Source: Methanocaldococcus indicus
GTDB lineage: Archaea; AGJL01; Methanococci; Methanococcales; Methanocaldococcaceae
Reading direction: 5' to 3'
NCBI RefSeq assembly: GCF_049554935.1
Contig: NZ_CP186926.1
Location: 416,001-480,000, forward strand
Length of the DNA: 64,000 nucleotides
Under the pieces are notes generated by a model, which worked only from the letters and a program-made list of their open reading frames with translations, was not told the DNA's origin and ran no database searches. Positions 14,223 to 32,076 of the stretch are shown piece by piece. Position 1 is the stretch's first letter. The number at the start of each line of letters is the position of its first letter. The translations under genes and the position numbers were made by a program.

Positions 14223-15548
14223 ATGGTTTGGTGTATATTATTGAAGAATGTAGCTGTTATCTACCCTAACAAATACAAAGCTGGAATAACTTGCTTAGCT
14301 GTTCATATTTTAGCTAATCATTTATCCAAATATTATAACACAAAAGTCTTCTTTTTAGAGAATTATCAACAAATAAAGAATTTTGACACTATCTTTATAA
14401 CTTTACAGTATGAATTAGACTATTTTAATGCAATAAATATAGTAAAGTTTTTAAAAATGCAAAATCCAAATGCTAAATTTATAGCTGGTGGGCCATGTGT
14501 TATGGAAAATCCTTATCCACTAATGGACTTTTTTGATGCATTTATTGTTGGTGAGATTGAAGGAAGTAATGTAATGTATGAAGTTGTTGAAGGTAATTAT
14601 GATGTTGAAGGTGTTTTAACAAAATATAAAGATAAAGTTAAAAGAATATATCCAAAAAAATTGGGAATAGAGGACTATCCAATATATCAACCTATTCCTG
14701 AAAATTCTGCTTATGGAAAAACATTTTTATTGGAATTGGGTAGAGGATGCCCAAGAAGATGTAAATTCTGCTTAGCAAGAGCTATCTACTACCCTCCAAG
14801 AATTAGAAAATTAGATGATTTAATATATTTAGCTGAAGAAGGTATTAAAACAAATAAAGTAAATAAAGTATCTTTAATACATCCATCTGTTGGAGATTAT
14901 AAATATATTTTAGATTTAGTTGAATATTTAGTTAATAAAGGTGTTCAAGTTTCTCTATCATCAATAAGAGTAGATACTCTAACAGAGGAATTTTTAAAGC
15001 TAACTAAACCAAAAACTTTAACAATAGCTCCAGAAGCAGGAAGTGAAAAGTTAAGAGAAATAATAAAAAAAGATATCTCTGAAGAGGATATATTTAGAGG
15101 AGTTGAATTAGCTAAAAAATATAATATTAGTAAGATAAAACTCTACTATATGGTTGGGCTTCCTAATGAGGAGTGGGAAGATATTGAGGCAATTATTAAC
15201 CAAGTAAAGGAGATTAAAAGACATATAAAAATGGTTGAAGTTTCAGTAAATCCCTTTATTCCTAAACCTCATACTGACTTTGAATTAGAGAGTTTTGATT
15301 TAGAAAGTAAGAAGAAAATAAAATATATTGAGAAGGAATTAAAAAAATATGGAGTTAGAGTTGAATATGAAAATTTCAATTCTATGCTATGTCAAGCAAT
15401 TTTAGCAAGAGGAGACACTTCTTTAAGCTATTATTTAGATAGAGCAAACAACTACTCAAAATTTTTAAGTTTAATTAAAAAAGATAATTTATTAGAAAAA
15501 TATTTAAATCCAAAGGAGTTAGTATGGAAGAACATAATATTAAAATGA
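14223..15548 (+). CDS. Radical SAM protein with B12-binding-like N-terminal domain
   Basis: GRGCPRRCKFC, AGGP, TIAPEAGSEKLR, YYMVGLP. Confidence 0.85.
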   Translation: MVWCILLKNVAVIYPNKYKAGITCLAVHILANHLSKYYNTKVFFLENYQQIKNFDTIFITLQYELDYFNAINIVKFLKMQNPNAKFIAGGPCVMENPYPLMDFFDAFIVGEIEGSNVMYEVVEGNYDVEGVLTKYKDKVKRIYPKKLGIEDYPIYQPIPENSAYGKTFLLELGRGCPRRCKFCLARAIYYPPRIRKLDDLIYLAEEGIKTNKVNKVSLIHPSVGDYKYILDLVEYLVNKGVQVSLSSIRVDTLTEEFLKLTKPKTLTIAPEAGSEKLREIIKKDISEEDIFRGVELAKKYNISKIKLYYMVGLPNEEWEDIEAIINQVKEIKRHIKMVEVSVNPFIPKPHTDFELESFDLESKKKIKYIEKELKKYGVRVEYENFNSMLCQAILARGDTSLSYYLDRANNYSKFLSLIKKDNLLEKYLNPKELVWKNIILK

Positions 15549-24799: not shown

Positions 24800-25166
24800 A
24801 ATTATCACGCTAAAAATCTTTATTTTTTGATTTTATTTAGTTTTAGTTGGTTATTTTTAATTTAAAGGATTTTTAGGAAAATTCGAAGGGGTCATTATTT
24901 TGAATATTTTGTATATTTTGATTATATAATTTATTGAGATTTTTTAGAGATTTATGTTGTTTCTTCCAATATTTGAAAATCCCTGATAAGTTGGTTTAGT
25001 TTTTGGAAATTGGGACTTTTTAATTGAATAATAGGAAATAGAAAGATTTTTATAAAAGTTCAAAGGTATATAAATGAATAGGGAAACCTACCCTTCGAAA
25101 ATTTTAGTACCAAAAAGCTTATATATGAGAACGTTGCTATATTATTATGTCTAAAATGTGCCTCCT
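24800..25166 (+). promoter_or_regulatory. CRISPR leader with BRE/TATA
   Basis: AT-rich non-coding region before the first repeat; AAAAAGCTTATATAT at ~25112-25126; left boundary approximate. Confidence 0.7.
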
Positions 25167-26264
25167 GTTAAAATAAGACCGTCCCGGTATGGAAATTTTA
25201 TGTTATAATTTGTAATAGTATATAACATAGCTAAATGTTAAAATAAGACCGTCCCGGTATGGAAATTGCATCTCTAATAATTCTTTCAGCTGGAATGTGC
25301 TTGTTAAAATAAGACCGTCCCGGTATGGAAATTTATGTTATGACATTGGAATTGCAGGAGATGTTAAGTTAAAATGCCTTTCTAAATCGTTCTTTTGGTC
25401 TCTGCTTGAATTGGAATTGCAGGAGATGTTAAGTTAAAATAAGACCGTCCCGGTATGGAAATTATGAAGTCATAGAAATGGATGGAGAGCCTTTTTTGTT
25501 AAAATAAGACCGTCCCGGTATGGAAATCAACTTTTAAGAATTCTTTTGTTAGTTGGACTGGCTTAGTTAAAATAAGACCGTCCCGGTATGGAAATAATTT
25601 TGTCCTTGTGAGTGTTACTTTTAAGCCATATCCCTTAAGTTAAAATAAGACCGTCCCGGTATGGAAATTTCATTCCAAGAAAACGAAAATCTCGATAGGC
25701 GTTAAAATAAGACCGTCCCGGTATGGAAATAAAAAAGAGATGTGGTGCTCAATGGTTATTTGTTTAAGTTAAAATAAGACCGTCCCGGTATGGAAATCTT
25801 CATATTGGAATTCTTCTTTATCTTGCAAACCATGTTAAAATAAGACCGTCCCGGTATGGAAATCTTCATATTGGAATTCTTCTTTATCTTGCAAACCATG
25901 TTAAAATAAGACCGTCCCGGTATGGAAATTTTTTTGAATACATAGCTAATCACTTGACACTTGATGTTAAAATAAGACCGTCCCGGTATGGAAATATTGT
26001 AGGGGATATAACTAACACAATTAGGGTTAAGTTAAAATAAGACCGTCCCGGTATGGAAATATGACTAAGCAAATATTTTGAAGTATAAAACAAAATGTTA
26101 AAATAAGACCGTCCCGGTATGGAAATCGTCCCCCCTCGCCCCTCGGCTTTAAAGTCATGACATGTTAAAATAAGACCGTCCCGGTATGGAAATCTTATCT
26201 CAAATTGTATCTCAAATAAAAGATGCTAATATCAGTTAAAATAAGACCGTCCCGGTATGGAAAT
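25167..26264 (+). CRISPR. CRISPR array: 16 identical 30-bp repeats GTTAAAATAAGACCGTCCCGGTATGGAAAT; spacers 32-43 bp plus one aberrant 100-bp interval
   Basis: Repeats start at 25167, 25237, 25303, 25433, 25498, 25566, 25639, 25701, 25768, 25834, 25900, 25966, 26031, 26097, 26164, 26235; no cas genes in the window. Confidence 0.99.
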
Positions 26265-26403: not shown

Positions 26404-26602
26404 TATTTTCCAATTAATCCTAACTTAGCCAATAAAGCACTTAACTGAATTCTTTCATTTACCGCCGCATAGAGGCAAGGCCTCTATTGCTATACACCAG
26501 AGAGGGGTTGCTTTTGGGCAACCCCACTTTAAATATTAAGTATTTTATTTTCCAATTAATCCTAACTTGGCTAATAAAGCACTTAACTGAATTCTTTCAT
26601 TT
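26404..26602. repeat. 57-bp direct repeat of the rfcS 3' end flanking an 84-bp double-hairpin insert
   Basis: 26404-26460 vs 26546-26602, 2 mismatches; hairpins ATAGAGGC/GCCTCTAT (26469-26487) and GGGGTTGC/GCAACCCC (26504-26525). Confidence 0.9.
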
Positions 26603-29600
26603 GCTCCTTCAACTATTCTATAATCTGTTTCTCCTATTGCCTCAGCTATTTGAACTTTTTTCTTCTCATCTATATTTAGATTATTAATTTCTCTAAACAT
26701 TTGATTTAGAATATCTTCTCCACTCATACCCCACTCTAACATCAATTTGTATAATAAATCTCTTGCTTCATTGAATTTTCCTTCTAAGGCTAAATCCATC
26801 ATCTTTCTAACTTCTTCTGGTCTTGCCCTTGAAGAAACTTTGTATATAACTTCATCATCTATTACATCACTTATAGCAGAAGCAGTTTGTAGAACATTAA
26901 TTGCTTTTCTTAAATCTCCCTCAGAAACATAAATTATTGCATCTAATCCTTTTTCTGTTAATTTTAATCCTTCTTTCTCAGCAATCTCTTTTAATTTTTT
27001 AGCTATATCTTCTCTTTTCAATGGTGAGAATCTAAATATAGCACATCTTGATTGTATTGGTGGGATAATCTTGCTTGGATAGTTGCAGTTGTGGGATATT
27101 AACCCATTTGCTATAAAGGAGTGGTCTTTAAGGCATGTTATATCATACACATCTCTATAACCAATACACTCTTTTTTAATGATTCTTTCTGAAACATACT
27201 TTCCATCAACAACCTTTTCTTTTAAGAACTCTTCAAAGGTCATAAAGTTTCTTGGTAATCCAATGTCTTTTCCTTTAAGTTGATTTACTATAAAATCAAC
27301 TGGAATGTTATATTTCCTTGCTAATTCTCTTAGAGATTTTTCACCATCTACTTCTTTCAATGCCTTTTCAGCAATGTCTTTTAGGATTATATCTTTATAT
27401 GCTTCTTTGATTCTTAAATACTCTCCAACCAACCTTGCAAAGTTGTCTTTTTCATAGGCATAGGATATTCTTGATAAATATTTGAGATAGTTTTTATTGT
27501 TTGCTTTAACTATCAACTCAATTAAGTTTTTGTTATCAATTTTACTAACTCTAATATCTGCCTCAACTTCAAATTCCTTCAACATTTTTCTAATGTCTTC
27601 AAAGAACTCTAATGTTTTATATTTACTAATATTTTCAACTCTTATACCTAATTTAATTCCATTTATGTTATATTTTTTAATGTATGGTTTAGTTCCATCA
27701 GCTCCAAATAATCCTCTTAAAAACTCTCTCTTAACAAATTTATTTCCATATTTTATCCATTTTGGAATATTGTAGCCATTTATAGTTTTATTTCCAATTT
27801 CTACTCCCCAGAAGTTTAACAATAGATATAATGCTTTATTATCAATGTATATGAATGATGTTTTCCCTTTAATTTCTCTACCATCTAAGTTATGATTAAT
27901 ATCTTTTTCAATTATATTTGATGATTTTATGCCTAATTTCTCTAAATCCTTCTTAATTTCTTCAAGTTCATTTATTGTAGCAGTTATTAATATTCTTCCT
28001 TCTTTTGATTTTGATAAATGCCCATCTCCAATTATAAAGCCTAACAACCTTGCAAATATTCCTGCTTTCTCATCATCATAAGTTATCTTATCCCATCTAA
28101 GTTCTTTGATTTTCTTTATGTATTTTAAAGCAAATCCATTAATTTTTCCATCAATAAGATTTTTTATAGTTGTTAATGATATTTTTATCCCAAATTCTTC
28201 CTCAATCTTTCTTTTAATCTCTGATTTGTTGTATTTTCCTGATAACTCTAAAACTCTATTTAATATTTTTTCTTTATCTTTTGTTATTAATTCTTTATAG
28301 GTTTTTGCTTTATCATAAGGTTTATATCCAATTTTAAGCTCATATTTTGTTAAAAACTCATAGAACTCATTTAAGTTAATTATCTTCCTATTATCAACTT
28401 CAAACTCAACTCCTTCCAATGCTGGATAAACCAATATCCCATCATCTTCCTTTAACTCATAAACCTCCTTCCACCCATATCTTGTTAAAAACTTGTGGTC
28501 TCCTGTTGCCTCTATCTCTCTACCACTTTCTAAAACTAATCTATAAACCTTATGATTTACTATCTTTGAATTAAATTTAACTCCTGCTAAAACTAAATCT
28601 TCTCCACTTCTATTTAAAACATGTTTAATTTTTCTTTTTTCAAACATTTTTATAAAGTCCTCTATCTTTATCTCCCTCTCATCTGGAAGAGTTATTTTTG
28701 CATCTCCTGTTAAACAACTTAAGATAAATCTACATACATCTGAATACTTCTCCATTGTTCTTCTTAAAGCATTTTGAGCATCTGCTGTTAGTGCATCACT
28801 CTCATCTAAGAATATTATCTTAAATGGAACATCTCCAATTGGCTTAGTTCTTGCAAATTCTTTTACTTTTGTCCTAATAACGTCTATACCTCTTTCATCT
28901 GAATTATGTAACAATATTGGCACATTTCCTGCAAAGAACATTTCATTATTTGGAACTGACACATCATAAACAAAGTCATTGTAGTCAATAACTTCAATCT
29001 CTTTAACAATCAAAGCATGAATCTCTGTTTCAGATAATTTTTGTAATAAATTGTAAATCTTTCTTTCTACATCAGTTAATTTCTCAACATCAACCATTTC
29101 TAAAATCTGCTTAATTTTGTCCTTTGAAACTCTCTTTTTATTTTCATAGAGTTGGTGTCTTAATATATATCTCCAATTTCCTTTTATCTTACTATCTAAC
29201 TTTTTAATCATTTTAATTATTGGCTCACTTGGTAATAAATTGCCTTTCTTCCATCCCATTTTTCCTTTCCAAATTAATCTTACCTCATTTTCAAATATTG
29301 AACTTTCAATTCCAGAAATTCTTGCTAACCATGCTGTATCTATTAATAAATTCTCGGATTTTGATGATATTCTAACAACTCCTCCCCAATTTCCACTGCC
29401 ATCTCCATCAGCCAATCCTTTTAAAAATTCAACTCTTAAATTTTCTTTTAACTCATATACAATATCTGGAATTCTTTTATCTCCTGCTTTTCTTCCATTT
29501 CCATTGTAGAAGTTTTTCTCAATAAATTTTGCAAGTTGAGTATTTAATATTCTAATCTGCTTAGCAGATAATCTTTTTCTATCAAATCCAGAACCTGTGA

Positions 29601-32076
29601 AGTTTTCATATTTACTAAATCCTTTTTTATCAATGATGTCATTTAGTCTATCAATTAAATCATGCTCATGACTGCCTAATGTGTAGATTACTTGCCCGGA
29701 AGTTTCTCCTCTAAATCCTATGGCTCCTTCAGCAGCATACAATCCAAGCATCCATGCAGTATCTTCATCAACCTCAAACTCATTAATTACTTTAACTCTT
29801 GAAGTTATATCCTTTGGTTCAAACTCTTTTAAATCTAATTTATCTTTTTCTCCTTCAATATTAGATATAAAGCTTAATAGACAATCTCCAACCTTTATAT
29901 CACTTGCTTTTCTTGCTACTAATCCATTTTCATCAAGCATCATAATAGAGTGGTTTCCTGTTAGTTCTATATATCCACCTTCAAACTTAACTCTTAAGAT
30001 TTTATCTACTTTATGCCTAATTATTGTAGAAACTTTTCTCCATCTAATTTTGAAATCTTTATCAATAGTTAAAACCTCTAAGTTATCAACTTTTTTATAC
30101 ATCTCATTTTCATCATTGGTGTTAAAGTATATCTTATCAAGCTCTTCAAATGTTGTTCTTTTTATCTTTCCATCTATTTTAACCAATATTGGAGTATTTT
30201 TTGAAACGGAGGCATTCAATTCCAAAAAGTTTTCTTTCCAATTTTCTCCAAATAAATCTCTTGCTAAACAAAGGGCTGTAGTTGTATTGTGTAGTATTGT
30301 TGGTAAATTCCCACCAATGAAGTTATGATATTTTGGAACATGCAAATCATATATTGTAAAGTCACCATTTAATTGTTCAATTTCTACAATCTCATCCCAG
30401 TAGATTTCGTTAGATGCTAAGAATAAGATATAACTAATACTATCCATTAATTTTTCATCATTGAGAATATCTCTTACAAGTTTGAGTTCAACCTTTCTAA
30501 TTTCTTCAAGCTTTTCAATTTCTTGTGTATTGCTTTCTAAATAAATCCTTATACTTGAATTCCATGTATTGAGCATCCTTCCTATTTCTGCATAACTTGA
30601 ATATTTCTTAGCAAATACTCTCATTGCATCTATTGTTTTTTCAATATCTTTATTTAAAGCATTAGCAATTTTTATGTAATTCTTTAAACTTGGTTTTCTT
30701 TTACCTTTTATGTATTCTAAAATCCTATCACTTCTTATTTCTGTCTTTTCTGCAATTTCTTTTCTTCTTTTTTCAACATCATTCCAATCAATTAATATAC
30801 TCTTTTCTAATATTTTTTCAATTTCTTTTAGCTCTTCTAATCTGTAATATATTTCATTTAAAAGTTCTTGAGCTATTTTTTTGCATTTATTGTAACTCCA
30901 ATTATCCTTTTCAATATCCCTCGTTAATTTAACTTTTAATCTATCCCTAATGTATTTTATTTTCTCTTTGTCAATAGTTATAACATCTAAGTTTGGATTT
31001 TCATCTTTTATAATATTTAAAAGCTTTTTAAGTTTTCTTTCATGATTAAAGCCAATATTATCTAAAAATGCTTTTAAATTTATAGAGTTTGATATTACAA
31101 TATGGTAATATTTCTTGTTATTGTTTTTATTTACTTTTTCTTTTAATTTTGCAATTATTCCAAACCTTAACAATGCATAAGTTAAATCCTCTGCCATCTT
31201 TTTGCTTGCAGTTGATAAAACTATCGAATGGCTTTCAACACCTCCATCACAATCAAAGTATGCTCTTAAAAATGCTTTTAATGCTCTACTTTTCATTATT
31301 TCTTTTGGAATTCTAACTTTATCTGCCTTACTTCCCCTTAAACCAAGCTTATCAATTAATGCCATTGCCTCTTTTGAATTAACATAAATATCTGGTGTTC
31401 TGTCTTTGTGTATTCTTTCTTTTATTTTTGCATCTTTAAATAATCTTTTAGTAAGTTCTGCAAATCTCTTTCTAAGTTTTTCATCACTGTTTGTGAAGGT
31501 TATCTTATTTGATTCTTTATCTGCATGCCCATCTCCAATGAAATAACCAAGCCACTCTGCTAAATCATCATTAAAATCTTTTTTTTCAAATAAGATGTAT
31601 CTTGGTGTTGCTAACTTATCTCCTACTTTTAAATTCTCTGCTTTTACCCATTTTATTTCTCCATTTTTATTGTTTATTAGTAAAGGATGATAAGTAGTTA
31701 CCTTTAACTCTCTACCCATTTTAGTTTTTATTTTTATTAAGACATTTGTTTTATCTTTATAGACATATTTAACATTAAATTCTTTAATTTTTCCATCTTC
31801 ATCAATTCCTAAAACCTTTAAGTTGTTGGTTAAAGTAGCTCCAAACTTTCCACTACTTATTTCTTCAACAACTTCTCCAATTTCTTTAACTTCTCCATTA
31901 ACAATAACTCTTGTATTTCCAGTTAAGCACTTCCCAACTCCTGGAGGTCCAGAGAAAAGTAGATGGGGCATACTTTTCTTTTCAACATACTTTTTTAATC
32001 TTTTTACTATTTCTTCTTGTCCAACAACTTCATCCAATGTCTTTGGTCTATATTTCTCTACCCATGGCTTTTCCAT
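26545..32076 (-). CDS. rfcS: Replication factor C small subunit with three inteins (316 aa after splicing)
   Basis: PWVEKYRP, GPPGVGK|TT, ELNA|SDERG, DESD, FILS|CNY, SRC. Confidence 0.97.
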   Translation of the reverse strand: MEKPWVEKYRPKTLDEVVGQEEIVKRLKKYVEKKSMPHLLFSGPPGVGKCLTGNTRVIVNGEVKEIGEVVEEISSGKFGATLTNNLKVLGIDEDGKIKEFNVKYVYKDKTNVLIKIKTKMGRELKVTTYHPLLINNKNGEIKWVKAENLKVGDKLATPRYILFEKKDFNDDLAEWLGYFIGDGHADKESNKITFTNSDEKLRKRFAELTKRLFKDAKIKERIHKDRTPDIYVNSKEAMALIDKLGLRGSKADKVRIPKEIMKSRALKAFLRAYFDCDGGVESHSIVLSTASKKMAEDLTYALLRFGIIAKLKEKVNKNNNKKYYHIVISNSINLKAFLDNIGFNHERKLKKLLNIIKDENPNLDVITIDKEKIKYIRDRLKVKLTRDIEKDNWSYNKCKKIAQELLNEIYYRLEELKEIEKILEKSILIDWNDVEKRRKEIAEKTEIRSDRILEYIKGKRKPSLKNYIKIANALNKDIEKTIDAMRVFAKKYSSYAEIGRMLNTWNSSIRIYLESNTQEIEKLEEIRKVELKLVRDILNDEKLMDSISYILFLASNEIYWDEIVEIEQLNGDFTIYDLHVPKYHNFIGGNLPTILHNTTTALCLARDLFGENWKENFLELNASVSKNTPILVKIDGKIKRTTFEELDKIYFNTNDENEMYKKVDNLEVLTIDKDFKIRWRKVSTIIRHKVDKILRVKFEGGYIELTGNHSIMMLDENGLVARKASDIKVGDCLLSFISNIEGEKDKLDLKEFEPKDITSRVKVINEFEVDEDTAWMLGLYAAEGAIGFRGETSGQVIYTLGSHEHDLIDRLNDIIDKKGFSKYENFTGSGFDRKRLSAKQIRILNTQLAKFIEKNFYNGNGRKAGDKRIPDIVYELKENLRVEFLKGLADGDGSGNWGGVVRISSKSENLLIDTAWLARISGIESSIFENEVRLIWKGKMGWKKGNLLPSEPIIKMIKKLDSKIKGNWRYILRHQLYENKKRVSKDKIKQILEMVDVEKLTDVERKIYNLLQKLSETEIHALIVKEIEVIDYNDFVYDVSVPNNEMFFAGNVPILLHNSDERGIDVIRTKVKEFARTKPIGDVPFKIIFLDESDALTADAQNALRRTMEKYSDVCRFILSCLTGDAKITLPDEREIKIEDFIKMFEKRKIKHVLNRSGEDLVLAGVKFNSKIVNHKVYRLVLESGREIEATGDHKFLTRYGWKEVYELKEDDGILVYPALEGVEFEVDNRKIINLNEFYEFLTKYELKIGYKPYDKAKTYKELITKDKEKILNRVLELSGKYNKSEIKRKIEEEFGIKISLTTIKNLIDGKINGFALKYIKKIKELRWDKITYDDEKAGIFARLLGFIIGDGHLSKSKEGRILITATINELEEIKKDLEKLGIKSSNIIEKDINHNLDGREIKGKTSFIYIDNKALYLLLNFWGVEIGNKTINGYNIPKWIKYGNKFVKREFLRGLFGADGTKPYIKKYNINGIKLGIRVENISKYKTLEFFEDIRKMLKEFEVEADIRVSKIDNKNLIELIVKANNKNYLKYLSRISYAYEKDNFARLVGEYLRIKEAYKDIILKDIAEKALKEVDGEKSLRELARKYNIPVDFIVNQLKGKDIGLPRNFMTFEEFLKEKVVDGKYVSERIIKKECIGYRDVYDITCLKDHSFIANGLISHNCNYPSKIIPPIQSRCAIFRFSPLKREDIAKKLKEIAEKEGLKLTEKGLDAIIYVSEGDLRKAINVLQTASAISDVIDDEVIYKVSSRARPEEVRKMMDLALEGKFNEARDLLYKLMLEWGMSGEDILNQMFREINNLNIDEKKKVQIAEAIGETDYRIVEGANERIQLSALLAKLGLIGK
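27088..28716 (-). mobile_element. Intein RFC-3 (543 aa), LAGLIDADG
   Basis: FILS|CLTG...LGFIIGDG...GLFGADG...SHN|CNYP. Confidence 0.93.
28903..30210 (-). mobile_element. Intein RFC-2 (436 aa), LAGLIDADG
   Basis: ELNA|SVSK...LGLYAAEG...GLADGDG...LHN|SDER. Confidence 0.93.
30286..31929 (-). mobile_element. Intein RFC-1 (548 aa), LAGLIDADG
   Basis: GVGK|CLTG...WLGYFIGDG...AYFDCDG...LHN|TTT. Confidence 0.93.

Follow-up and report, generated by a model that had tools for sequence, protein, structure and literature searches.

A probable off-register spacer integration in a CRISPR array of Methanocaldococcus indicus, with scars of similar geometry elsewhere in the genome

Background

In canonical spacer integration, the integrase attacks both borders of a repeat. 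How Cas1-Cas2 measures this repeat is debated, a fixed ruler being set against a motif-anchored one, and the question has been tested with mutants and in vitro assays.

Integration at other places has been described before. In the type I-E system of Escherichia coli, off-target integration gives rise to 'neo-CRISPR' loci, according to the excerpts available of Nivala, Shipman and Church 2018 (Nat Microbiol; bioRxiv 10.1101/148544; PMC7054753; PMC6698737). Cas1-Cas2 was overproduced in that work and the sites lay mostly elsewhere in the chromosome; natural evidence, in the available part of the preprint, is circumstantial and concerns two species (bioRxiv 10.1101/148544). For Pyrococcus furiosus Cas1-Cas2 in vitro, the excerpted report describes paired off-target attacks on opposite strands, spaced 30-31 bp apart, at non-CRISPR sites (Grainy 2019, PMC6698737). 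The type I-B system of Haloarcula hispanica uses motif-anchored rulers, and displaced mid-repeat motifs lead to duplications of 29 and 31-33 bp (Wang 2016, PMC4872114, in excerpt). In the same excerpt, the first mid-repeat motif is essential and the leader-proximal cut always falls at the junction (PMC4872114). Ectopic spacer acquisition inside arrays is described for type II-A of Streptococcus thermophilus in the accessible text of PMC7999890.

We analysed a stretch of 64,000 nucleotides of the Methanocaldococcus indicus genome (contig NZ_CP186926.1, positions 416,001 to 480,000), here called the window. An earlier note, based on its letters, had proposed that one CRISPR array in it carries the fossil of a shifted spacer integration.

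Results

Array, leader and orientation

Features of the array are collected in Table 1, together with those of related structures found elsewhere in the genome. Repeat spacings in the array are 62-73 nt, with the exception of unit 3, which measures 130 nt. The region 25040-25196 shows 82-98% identity to other leaders of the same genome, and the closest leaders elsewhere in the genus reach at most 76% identity to the window leader. Since the 100 nt that precede repeat 1 are conserved across all family-1 arrays, the leader lies upstream and the numbering of spacer 3 is correct. Orientation is further fixed by three sister arrays, because their terminal repeats are degenerate at the far end (3-6 mismatches). 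Family-1 spacers of the genome (n=57) are mostly 32-43 nt long.

Table 1. Features of the window array (window positions) and of further scars in the genome (positions on contig C1)
Feature	Position	Strand	Remarks
CRISPR leader, conserved proximal part	25040-25166	+	100 nt before repeat 1 near-identical across five family-1 arrays
CRISPR array, 16 identical 30-nt repeats and 15 inter-repeat segments	25167-26264	+	runs from leader to distal end
Repeat 3, intact	25303-25332	+
Spacer 3, 35 nt, pre-existing; last 23 nt duplicated	25333-25367	+	85-nt contig of run X2 has spacer 3 flanked on both sides by canonical repeat sequence
Putative target-site duplication, copy 1 (23 nt of spacer 3 and repeat positions 1-8)	25345-25375	+	exact 31-nt direct repeat, period 65
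Putative inserted spacer, 34 nt, unique	25376-25409	+	protospacer match spans 25375-25410
Putative target-site duplication, copy 2, exact 31-mer, runs into repeat 4	25410-25440	+
Repeat 4, intact	25433-25462	+
Scar A	C1:967177		31 nt duplicated (14 nt of leader and repeat positions 1-17), insert 37 nt
Scar B	nested in scar A		31-32 nt duplicated, insert 35-36 nt, left cut at true leader-repeat junction
Scar iv	C1:400903		31 nt duplicated, entirely leader, insert 38 nt
Scar v	C1:401153		31 nt duplicated (15 nt of repeat and 16 nt of spacer), insert 37 nt

Structure of the scar

In unit 3, the repeat begins after spacer 3 with its head GTTAAAAT (25368-25375) and is then interrupted by the insert, which is framed by the two 31-mers. 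The period of the scar (65 nt) equals the normal unit length and the length of the spacer 3 unit, and 31 of its 65 positions are duplicated. Only 8 of the 31 nt of the duplicated target are repeat; the duplication measures 31 nt versus 30 nt for the canonical repeat. Such a 31-mer duplication around a 34-nt insert is far beyond chance. The positions that the earlier note had given for the 31-mer copies, the 34-nt segment and the completion of the repeat are all exact.

Both the 34-mer and the 31-mer occur at a single locus of the 1.44-Mb genome at up to 8 substitutions, except for one chance match of the 31-mer with 8 mismatches. With no other genome copy of the insert at this threshold, the objection that it might already exist as a normal spacer or chromosomal sequence falls away. 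The size of the insert, 34-36 nt, fits the range of spacers in the genome. Ectopic events in S. thermophilus are said to involve a whole internal repeat, in register; the target duplicated here contains repeat positions 1-8 and not the whole internal repeat.

The 65-nt period is also what a tandem duplication of spacer 3 with its repeat would give, by slippage or unequal recombination, if the inner 34 nt had been replaced or had decayed afterwards. Duplications of whole units do occur: spacers 9 and 10 of the array are identical (25768-25833 and 25834-25899; period 66, identity over 96 nt), array C1:1004150 has a duplicated 68-nt unit, and several cases were seen in relatives. However, 34 of the 65 positions are unrelated between the copies, and on inspection the segment bears no relation to what a unit duplication would put there. 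Because the 31-mers on either side have not diverged at all, there was no time for these 34 nt to diverge fully. A duplicated unit whose inner 34 nt had been inverted was ruled out by inspection as well.

Origin of the insert

A protospacer, looked for on the reading given in the earlier note, was found. Window positions 25375-25410 (36 nt, 0 mismatches) lie within non-CRISPR metagenome contigs (664 nt in run X3, 1853 nt in run X4), the contigs coming from a single study with 30 nt visible per flank. Loose ends in runs X1, X3 and X4, all of this study, share identical unrelated flanks on both sides of the 36-nt match, and these three runs also contain protospacers for spacers 1, 5 and 6. The insert is thus of foreign origin and, because the match extends over 25375-25410, the integrated fragment may be 34-36 nt long. 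The match in non-CRISPR contigs already contradicts a unit duplication, and the four other scars in arrays and leaders described below are not buildable from whole units; we regard tandem duplication as extremely improbable.

Flanks of five protospacers were compared for a shared PAM. CCA lies directly upstream of the protospacers of spacer 1 and of the scar v insert, and for the window insert it is found 3 nt further upstream (CCACTT before G at 25376). The protospacer of spacer 5 is preceded by ATCT, and that of spacer 6 by T, the only base visible.

Other searches gave little. The 34-mer had no match in IMG/VR viral contigs and JGI metagenome contigs beyond the window itself, and none of 39 other genomes of the order contained it at up to 3 mismatches. 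When the whole array was compared by BLAST with phage records and plasmid records, no match was returned. Family-2 spacers had no self or plasmid matches, and the sole match of family-1 spacers was to another array.

A contig from run X2 (second study, close relative with common array flanks) reads uninterruptedly from repeat through spacer 3 to repeat, the array being non-collinear and the contig the product of a k-mer assembly, in which a path through the repeated 31-mer could in principle have bypassed the loop. The X2 array has spacer 3 and is without spacers 1, 2, 4, 5 and 6; cover in this run is nil in the bins of the 34-mer and of spacers 1, 2, 5 and 6, gaps in contig data being no proof of absence. 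When a collinear sister array was looked for via the flanking RqcH gene, the metagenome loci showed at most 71% protein identity and no same-species array appeared. None of the sequencing runs searched contains the window stretch (best word shares 0.12, 0.07 and 0.05), and no RNA run was listed.

Further scars in the genome

Four further scars are located in arrays and leaders of the same genome, and one candidate (vi) lies between cas4 and cas1. In all of them, a duplication of 31-33 nt surrounds an insert of 34-39 nt. In silico removal of scar B and then of scar A yields a canonical leader with one intact repeat. For the scar v insert, the chromosome has an exact copy at C1:1171348-1171384 and the plasmid one with 2 mismatches at C2:9761-9797, with CCA before both. 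Inserts of scars vi, v and iv had no match in viral contigs, and comparison of inserts X and Y of the cas-adjacent locus with 40 genomes gave repeat-head matches only.

The whole genome was scanned for exact direct repeats of at least 25 nt with periods of 36-400 outside nine canonical arrays, which gave 30 rows. A period of 65-72 together with an unrelated insert was found in only four of these (C1:400903, 401153, 965777 and 967231). One further locus, C1:1271871 (29-nt repeat, period 60), was rejected as a scar, since it is a tandem duplication that has diverged (identity 0.80 across the whole period). In five complete related genomes, no non-canonical duplication was found among 330 repeat pairs at 40 array loci. 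Non-canonical versus canonical pairs amount to 5 versus 67 here and 0 versus 324 in relatives (Fisher p = 1.8e-4).

Recurrence also bears on the quality of the assembly. Arrays are hard to assemble and no sequencing run searched covers the junctions, so that a mis-join or a chimeric read within the repetitive array might be suspected. Such an artefact would not, however, place a foreign 34-mer between two exact copies of spacer-plus-repeat sequence. Moreover, the genome is finished (2 contigs, 99.25% complete) and has five further structures of the same geometry, one of them nested in another. An assembly artefact is hardly credible.

Another conceivable origin is insertion with a long duplication but without Cas1-Cas2, either by repair of a staggered break with filler DNA or as the footprint of a small mobile element. 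At the cas4/cas1 junction, other insertions of about 124-415 nt are present in 4 of the 13 genus relatives that have both flanks, and the cas4 3' end is duplicated in the two of these that were aligned. Another duplication-generating process therefore acts in the genus, and candidate vi may be its product. On the other hand, a 31-nt duplication with a 34-39-nt insert matches the sizes of repeats and spacers in five separate events, all in leaders or arrays. The scar inserts are of single-copy type and mutually unrelated (for the window insert, at up to 8 substitutions), which speaks against a transposon or MITE. Transposons and casposons leave far shorter target duplications, of at most 15 bp, as summarised in the excerpt of PMC4872114. 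An origin without Cas1-Cas2 is very unlikely on this evidence.

Cas machinery

One cas1 gene only is present in the genome, inside a type I-B operon with the order cas6-(IS6)-cas8?-cas7-cas5-cas3-cas4-cas1b-cas2. The cas1b score is 448.9 bits versus a cut-off of 304; cas7 is of the Cst2/DevR type and cas5 is cas5b. The operon lies about 525 kb from the window array and does not adjoin it. Regular identical repeats, a leader, cas1, cas2 and cas4 and effector genes, as proper to type I-B adaptation, are all found for the array. A type III-A csm1 gene is also present in the genome.

Likeness of the targets to the repeat

According to the earlier note, the ends of the shifted target mimic those of the true repeat. 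This holds for the window target, whose ends agree with the repeat at 5/8 and 5/8 positions, a post hoc score equalled or exceeded by 39 of 7068 off-register windows. Over its whole length, the same target matches the repeat at 15 of 30 positions in reverse orientation (P=0.017). As a general rule, the idea had to be rejected: for scars A, iv, v and vi, the end scores (2, 5, 4 and 5-7 of 16, respectively) and the whole-length likeness (P=0.6-0.95) are both ordinary. Because it is absent from these scars, end mimicry is not a general requirement.

Discussion

It is very probable that the scar represents one off-register spacer integration by the sole Cas1-Cas2 of the genome, belonging to a type I-B module with Cas4. 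Judged from the sequence, Cas1-Cas2 would have catalysed the event by two attacks staggered by about 31 bp (29-31 with the 1-nt ambiguity at each end taken into account). The attacked segment would reach from 23 nt before repeat 4 to after repeat position 8, and gap repair would then leave one copy of it on each side of a 34-36-nt fragment taken from a foreign element. About 31 bp is the best reading of the stagger. The proposal that a spacer-sized foreign fragment entered a shifted target of roughly repeat length, which became duplicated, is thus borne out by the protospacer, uniqueness and length of the insert and by four scars plus one candidate. The ruler mechanism that had been deduced from the window alone is strengthened by the other scars of the same geometry.

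The pseudo-repeat would be without a Cas6 site, and units 3 and 3' may therefore be carried by one long crRNA, possibly a double-spacer species of about 100 nt. Only spacer 3 would adjoin a proper 5' handle, and the new spacer is probably non-functional and neutral.

Several independent integrations into targets without an in-register repeat, all with a duplication of about 31 bp, are natural end products that bear on the debate about repeat measurement. All five or six scars have duplications of at least 31 nt, while in the same cell canonical repeats are faithfully copied whether they have 30 nt or 31 nt. In scar B, the cut at the leader junction is correct and measurement ran across foreign sequence. 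These scars of about 31 bp, scar B included, indicate that the distal half of the repeat need not be read for the spacing to be set, the main role of sequence reading being to set the register. The distance between the attacks appears to be dictated by the shape of the complex and not by recognition of the repeat sequence.

We tentatively suggest, as a possibility somewhat short of an even chance, that register control is relaxed in the lineage's single type I-B integrase, which completes full-site integration with an intrinsic 31-bp stagger even when the repeat is not read, that repeats arise and turn over stepwise by integrase error, and that off-register spacers are silent. If so, the cas-adjacent locus would record how a new repeat, composed of repeat positions 1-17 and spacer sequence, came into being next to the leader and was then re-used as the target of the next integration. 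Immunological silence of off-register spacers could account for the tolerance of scar v, whose insert has a perfect self-match flanked by CCA.

The scars show first steps of new repeats and mini-arrays in a wild archaeon, previously proposed from overexpression in E. coli. Formation of new repeats in this way, put forward in the earlier note too, is an idea already contained in Nivala 2018, as excerpted, and is illustrated directly at the cas-adjacent locus. The strain looks a good candidate for studies of adaptation fidelity. For array-annotation software there is a practical consequence, since such units will be misread as over-long spacers.

Comparison with known systems

As in S. thermophilus, going by the accessible text on that system, the new spacer is internal to the array and not next to the leader; unlike there, the duplicated target holds 8 nt of repeat.

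The mid-repeat motifs essential in H. hispanica, the one type I-B system studied according to the excerpt of PMC4872114, are lacking in the window target. Scar B resembles the H. hispanica mutants described there, in that the leader junction is intact, as are the first 17 bases of the repeat, while the distal half is replaced and 31-32 nt are duplicated (PMC4872114). In contrast to that system as excerpted, four events here concern targets without an in-register repeat motif (PMC4872114).

The spacing of about 31 bp is shared with P. furiosus, likewise a hyperthermophilic euryarchaeon, whose repeat has 30 nt (PMC6698737, in excerpt). Positionally conserved bases in common with the repeat are described for the P. 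furiosus sites, whereas here only the window event has repeat likeness; the P. furiosus data were obtained in vitro, while here the scars are fixed in a genome (PMC6698737, same excerpt).

The neo-CRISPR loci of E. coli, as far as described in the available excerpts, share with the present scars a spacer-sized insert out of register, a duplicated stretch of non-repeat DNA roughly as long as a repeat and a new repeat pair that can seed growth. In contrast to them, the events reported here are natural, belong to an archaeal type I-B system, lie within arrays or leaders and number five or six in this one genome, scar B having re-used a neo-repeat. The phenomenon is already known experimentally from the excerpted work (Nivala 2018; Grainy 2019), and the present genome provides a natural, recurrent example of it.

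An off-register unit in the CRISPR array

In unit 3 of the window array, a 31-mer occurs in two identical copies on both sides of a unique 34-nt segment, after which the repeat is completed. Sequence and coordinates of this arrangement, which has a period of 65 nt, agree exactly with their description in the earlier note. The 100 nt upstream of repeat 1 are near-identical ahead of four further arrays sharing the window repeat (family 1), and three of these four end in a degenerate terminal repeat. This indicates that the plus strand runs from the leader to the distal end and, consequently, that the odd unit is the third from the leader. The 34-mer, a chromosomal copy of which would have spoken against the earlier note, is single-copy in the 1.44-Mb genome when up to 8 substitutions are tolerated; the same search finds the 31-mer at its two window sites and at one chance match with 8 mismatches.

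Positions of the array features and scars (bare numbers, window; L002, cas operon locus; L065, second-repeat-family array locus; G000, source genome; C1, its chromosome)
Feature	Position	Strand	Context
CRISPR array	25167-26264	+	16 identical 30-nt repeats
Repeat 3	25303-25332	+	array sequence
Spacer 3, 35 nt	25333-25367	+	directly after repeat 3
Repeat head, first 8 nt	25368-25375	+	after spacer 3
Insert, 34 nt	25376-25409	+	between 31-mer copies
31-mer copies 1 and 2	25345-25375; 25410-25440	+	copy 2 runs into repeat 4
Repeat 4, intact	25433-25462	+	
Scar A	L002 14178-14208; 14313-14343 (G000:C1:967177-967343)	-	leader-plus-single-repeat locus adjoining cas2
Scar B	L002 14232-14263; 14299-14330	-	nested in scar A
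Scar iv	L065 304-334; 373-403 (G000:C1:400903-401002)		second-repeat-family array
Scar v	L065 554-584; 622-652 (G000:C1:401153-401251)		second-repeat-family array
Candidate vi	L002 12778-12810; 12850-12882 (G000:C1:965777-965881)		between cas4 and cas1

Other repetition is present in and near the array. An exact 66-nt tandem unit duplication accounts for spacers 9 and 10 and the adjoining repeats (25768-25899); a comparable 68-nt one lies in the array at C1:1004150-1004252 and several are found in arrays of relatives (loci L016, L039, L040, L078, L089 and L090). Spacers 1 and 3 have TTATGTTAT in common at or near their leader-proximal ends (25198-25206, 25333-25341). Just downstream of the array, a 57-nt direct repeat (26404-26460 and 26546-26602, 96% identical, 142 nt apart) lies where a 1843-aa ORF ends (26545-32076, minus strand).

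Origin of the insert

Contigs of four sequencing runs were searched (X1, X3 and X4 from one study, X2 from a second); the window array itself was found in no sequencing run. The protospacer search proposed in the earlier note yielded an exact match: window 25375-25410 (36 nt, 0 mismatches) lies within non-CRISPR contigs of X3 (664 nt) and X4 (1853 nt). The same non-repeat flanks are found on both sides of the match at loose ends in X1, X3 and X4; all of this comes from contigs of a single study, in which 30 nt of each flank could be read. Non-array matches in the same runs were also obtained for spacer 1 (25198-25236), spacer 5 (25527-25565) and spacer 6 (25595-25638); the 34-mer thus shares its foreign DNA source with the regular spacers. 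On this evidence, the insert is a spacer. Both the external protospacer and the flanking copies, which are perfectly identical, contradict a tandem duplication of the unit with later replacement of its inner sequence.

Since the match takes in T at 25375 and A at 25410, the integrated fragment may be 34, 35 or 36 nt long, leaving a duplication of 31, 30 or 29 nt, respectively; family-1 spacers mostly measure 32-43 nt (n=57). The T...A ends of the match are compatible with either orientation of the insert. Among five protospacers in total, CCA immediately precedes those of spacer 1 and of the scar v insert and is located 3 nt further upstream for the window insert; spacer 5 has ATCT, and only T is visible for spacer 6.

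Run X2 comprises about 1.4 Mb of contigs and has leader variants and array flanks in common with the source genome. One of its contigs, 85 nt long, has spacer 3 between two 25-nt pieces of repeat; spacer 3 is an ordinary spacer there, with an intact repeat behind it. The contig is not a clean empty allele, since the run lacks the neighbouring spacers and a k-mer contig could in principle traverse the repeated 31-mer. No collinear sister-strain array was found.

CRISPR-Cas systems of the genome

The window belongs to the 1.41-Mb chromosome of an AT-rich archaeal methanogen (28% G+C) that also harbours a 22-kb plasmid (C2). The only cas1 of the whole genome resides in a type I-B operon containing cas6, an IS6-family transposase gene, a 517-aa ORF, cas7 (Cst2/DevR), cas5b, cas3, cas4, cas1b and cas2; the ORF, which has no family match, is probably cas8. 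Type III-A csm1 is found elsewhere. The transposase gene (L002 5843-6487, minus strand), situated between cas6 and the putative cas8, overlaps the end of the cas6 ORF by 38 nt and might alter expression of downstream cas genes including cas4-cas1.

Repeats of a second family measure 30 nt in some arrays and 31 nt in others, and their leader is closely related to the family-1 leader. Two hybrid arrays suggest repeat turnover inside arrays: at C1:299409-300316, a 3-mismatch variant makes up the 11 leader-proximal repeats, ahead of 3 canonical distal ones, and at C1:281862-282431, second-family repeats are followed by degenerate first-family repeats. Two arrays of different repeat families each took a spacer from the same protospacer (C1:1004489-1004528, spacer 6 of its array, and the C1:935499 region), the two spacers having the same 5' end, 3' ends 2 nt apart and 2 mismatches. 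The plasmid carries its own small array (C2:10763-11264), with a leader 86% identical to that of the window.

Further scars

The whole genome was scanned for exact direct repeats around an unrelated insert, and matches were inspected in detail. Outside the nine canonical arrays, repeats of at least 25 nt with periods of 36-400 gave 30 matches, some of which constitute a further array at C1:401004. A period of 65-72 together with an unrelated insert characterizes scars iv, v and B and candidate vi, while scar A was seen at period 135. Period classes 43-59, 77-93 and 94-110 (up to 3 mismatches in 31 nt) contained tandem or gene-internal repeats only. An assembly artefact is possible but implausible in view of the structure of the window unit and of five related structures in a finished genome.

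In scar A, 31 nt (the last 14 nt of the leader and repeat positions 1-17) are duplicated around a 37-nt insert. Scar B duplicates 31-32 nt (repeat positions 1-17 followed by 14 nt from the start of A's insert), enclosing 35-36 nt; on the left it is bounded by the true leader-repeat junction. In-silico removal of B and then of A leaves a canonical leader with one intact repeat; scar B re-used the hybrid repeat made by scar A. This cas-adjacent leader also contains a 13-nt tandem duplication (GTTGCTATATTAT twice; L002 ~14345-14375, minus strand) absent from other leaders.

The 31 nt duplicated in scar iv are entirely leader, ending 1 nt ahead of the first repeat, and enclose 38 nt. The leader-repeat junction of this array is altered relative to other arrays. 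Scar v duplicates 31 nt (the last 15 nt of the repeat and 16 nt of the next spacer) around a 37-nt insert, which has an exact copy at C1:1171348-1171384, in a stretch 79% identical to the plasmid, and a 2-mismatch copy at C2:9761-9797, both preceded by CCA. The scar v insert is accordingly a spacer captured from a plasmid-like element, and would be self-targeting if functional.

Candidate vi is a 33-nt duplication across the cas4 stop and cas1 start, with both reading frames whole and a 39-nt insert (51% G+C) that has no match in any genus relative, the surrounding region being matched in 14 of 16. In nine relatives a single copy of the segment is shared by the cas4 and cas1 pieces, representing the empty allele; in four these pieces are 124-415 nt apart, and two of these, aligned (L010 and L012), have a different insertion with the cas4 3' end duplicated. 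Another process thus acts at this site as well. A non-Cas process leaving a long duplication is possible, mainly here, and of all six cases candidate vi is the least secure.

No non-canonical duplication was found in relatives, either among 211 repeat pairs (23 leader-anchored loci, 9 genomes) or among 330 pairs of an overlapping set (40 longer array loci, five complete genomes). In the source genome, 67 pairs are canonical and 5 are odd, with composite A in addition. The difference (5/67 versus 0/324; Fisher p = 1.8e-4) involves kin that are not independent and that were screened only at leader-found arrays.

Mechanism and target choice

The core reading of the earlier note, duplication of a shifted, roughly repeat-length target around a spacer-sized fragment, fits the geometry, the external protospacer and the further scars. 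Two attacks on opposite strands would be followed by gap repair duplicating the DNA in between, as in transposase-like full-site integration. We assign the scars to the type I-B Cas1-Cas2 complex, which probably made them, because the duplications have repeat length, the inserts have spacer length and, to our knowledge, duplicating 30 bp is not seen with any other integrase. Transposons and casposons duplicate at most 15 bp, as PMC4872114 summarizes.

All six duplications are at least 31 nt long. Among 324 canonical pairs of relatives, 152 are by chance identical over more than 30 nt, giving p ~0.011 for six of six and, by arithmetic from the same fraction, ~0.023 for five of five. Canonical repeats of 30 and of 31 nt are both copied faithfully in the same cell.

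The claim that target ends mimic repeat ends holds for the window and not as a general feature. The first and last 8 nt of the window 31-mer each match the repeat ends at 5/8, a score equalled or exceeded by 39 of 7068 off-register windows in own family-1 arrays (148 of 7068 for 30-nt readings; both post hoc). Its whole-length likeness to the repeat is highest in reverse orientation (15/30, P=0.017, post hoc). Scars A, iv, v and vi have end scores of 2, 5, 4 and 5-7 of 16, and whole-length likeness with P = 0.6-0.95. End mimicry may have favoured the window site; for off-register events generally it is dispensable.

Expected consequences for crRNA

Cas6 cleaves 8 nt from the repeat end, within the distal part. 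Since the pseudo-repeat is devoid of the distal 22 nt, and hence of the Cas6 site, unit 3 should be processed into a single crRNA of about 100 nt, in which only spacer 3 has a proper 5' handle in front of it. The new window spacer thus probably confers no immunity. Silence of off-register spacers would also account for the tolerance of the self-matching scar v insert. Type I-B priming is described as tolerant of guide size variation in PMC6582329.

Comparison with known systems

In type I-B of H. hispanica, cut positions are read from mid-repeat motifs, displacement of which gives aberrant sizes of 29 or 31-33 bp (PMC4872114); scar duplications of at least 31 nt fit this picture. The mutants described there have a near natural counterpart in scar B, which retains the leader junction and repeat bases 1-17 with other sequence in place of the distal half; its left cut is correct, and its right cut lies 31-32 nt away. 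Scar spacing also agrees with off-target paired attacks 30-31 bp apart in P. furiosus (PMC6698737). Searches of the open-access literature turned up no account of natural scars of this off-register kind within arrays, and a summary of Nivala et al. 2018 calls natural evidence for such integration circumstantial, from two species. Off-target integration as such is known, and we regard the present genome as a natural, unusually rich instance of it. According to the same summary, off-target integration in E. coli copies a stretch roughly as long as one repeat and gives rise to 'neo-CRISPR' loci; the scars reported here resemble these in the length duplicated, and are natural.
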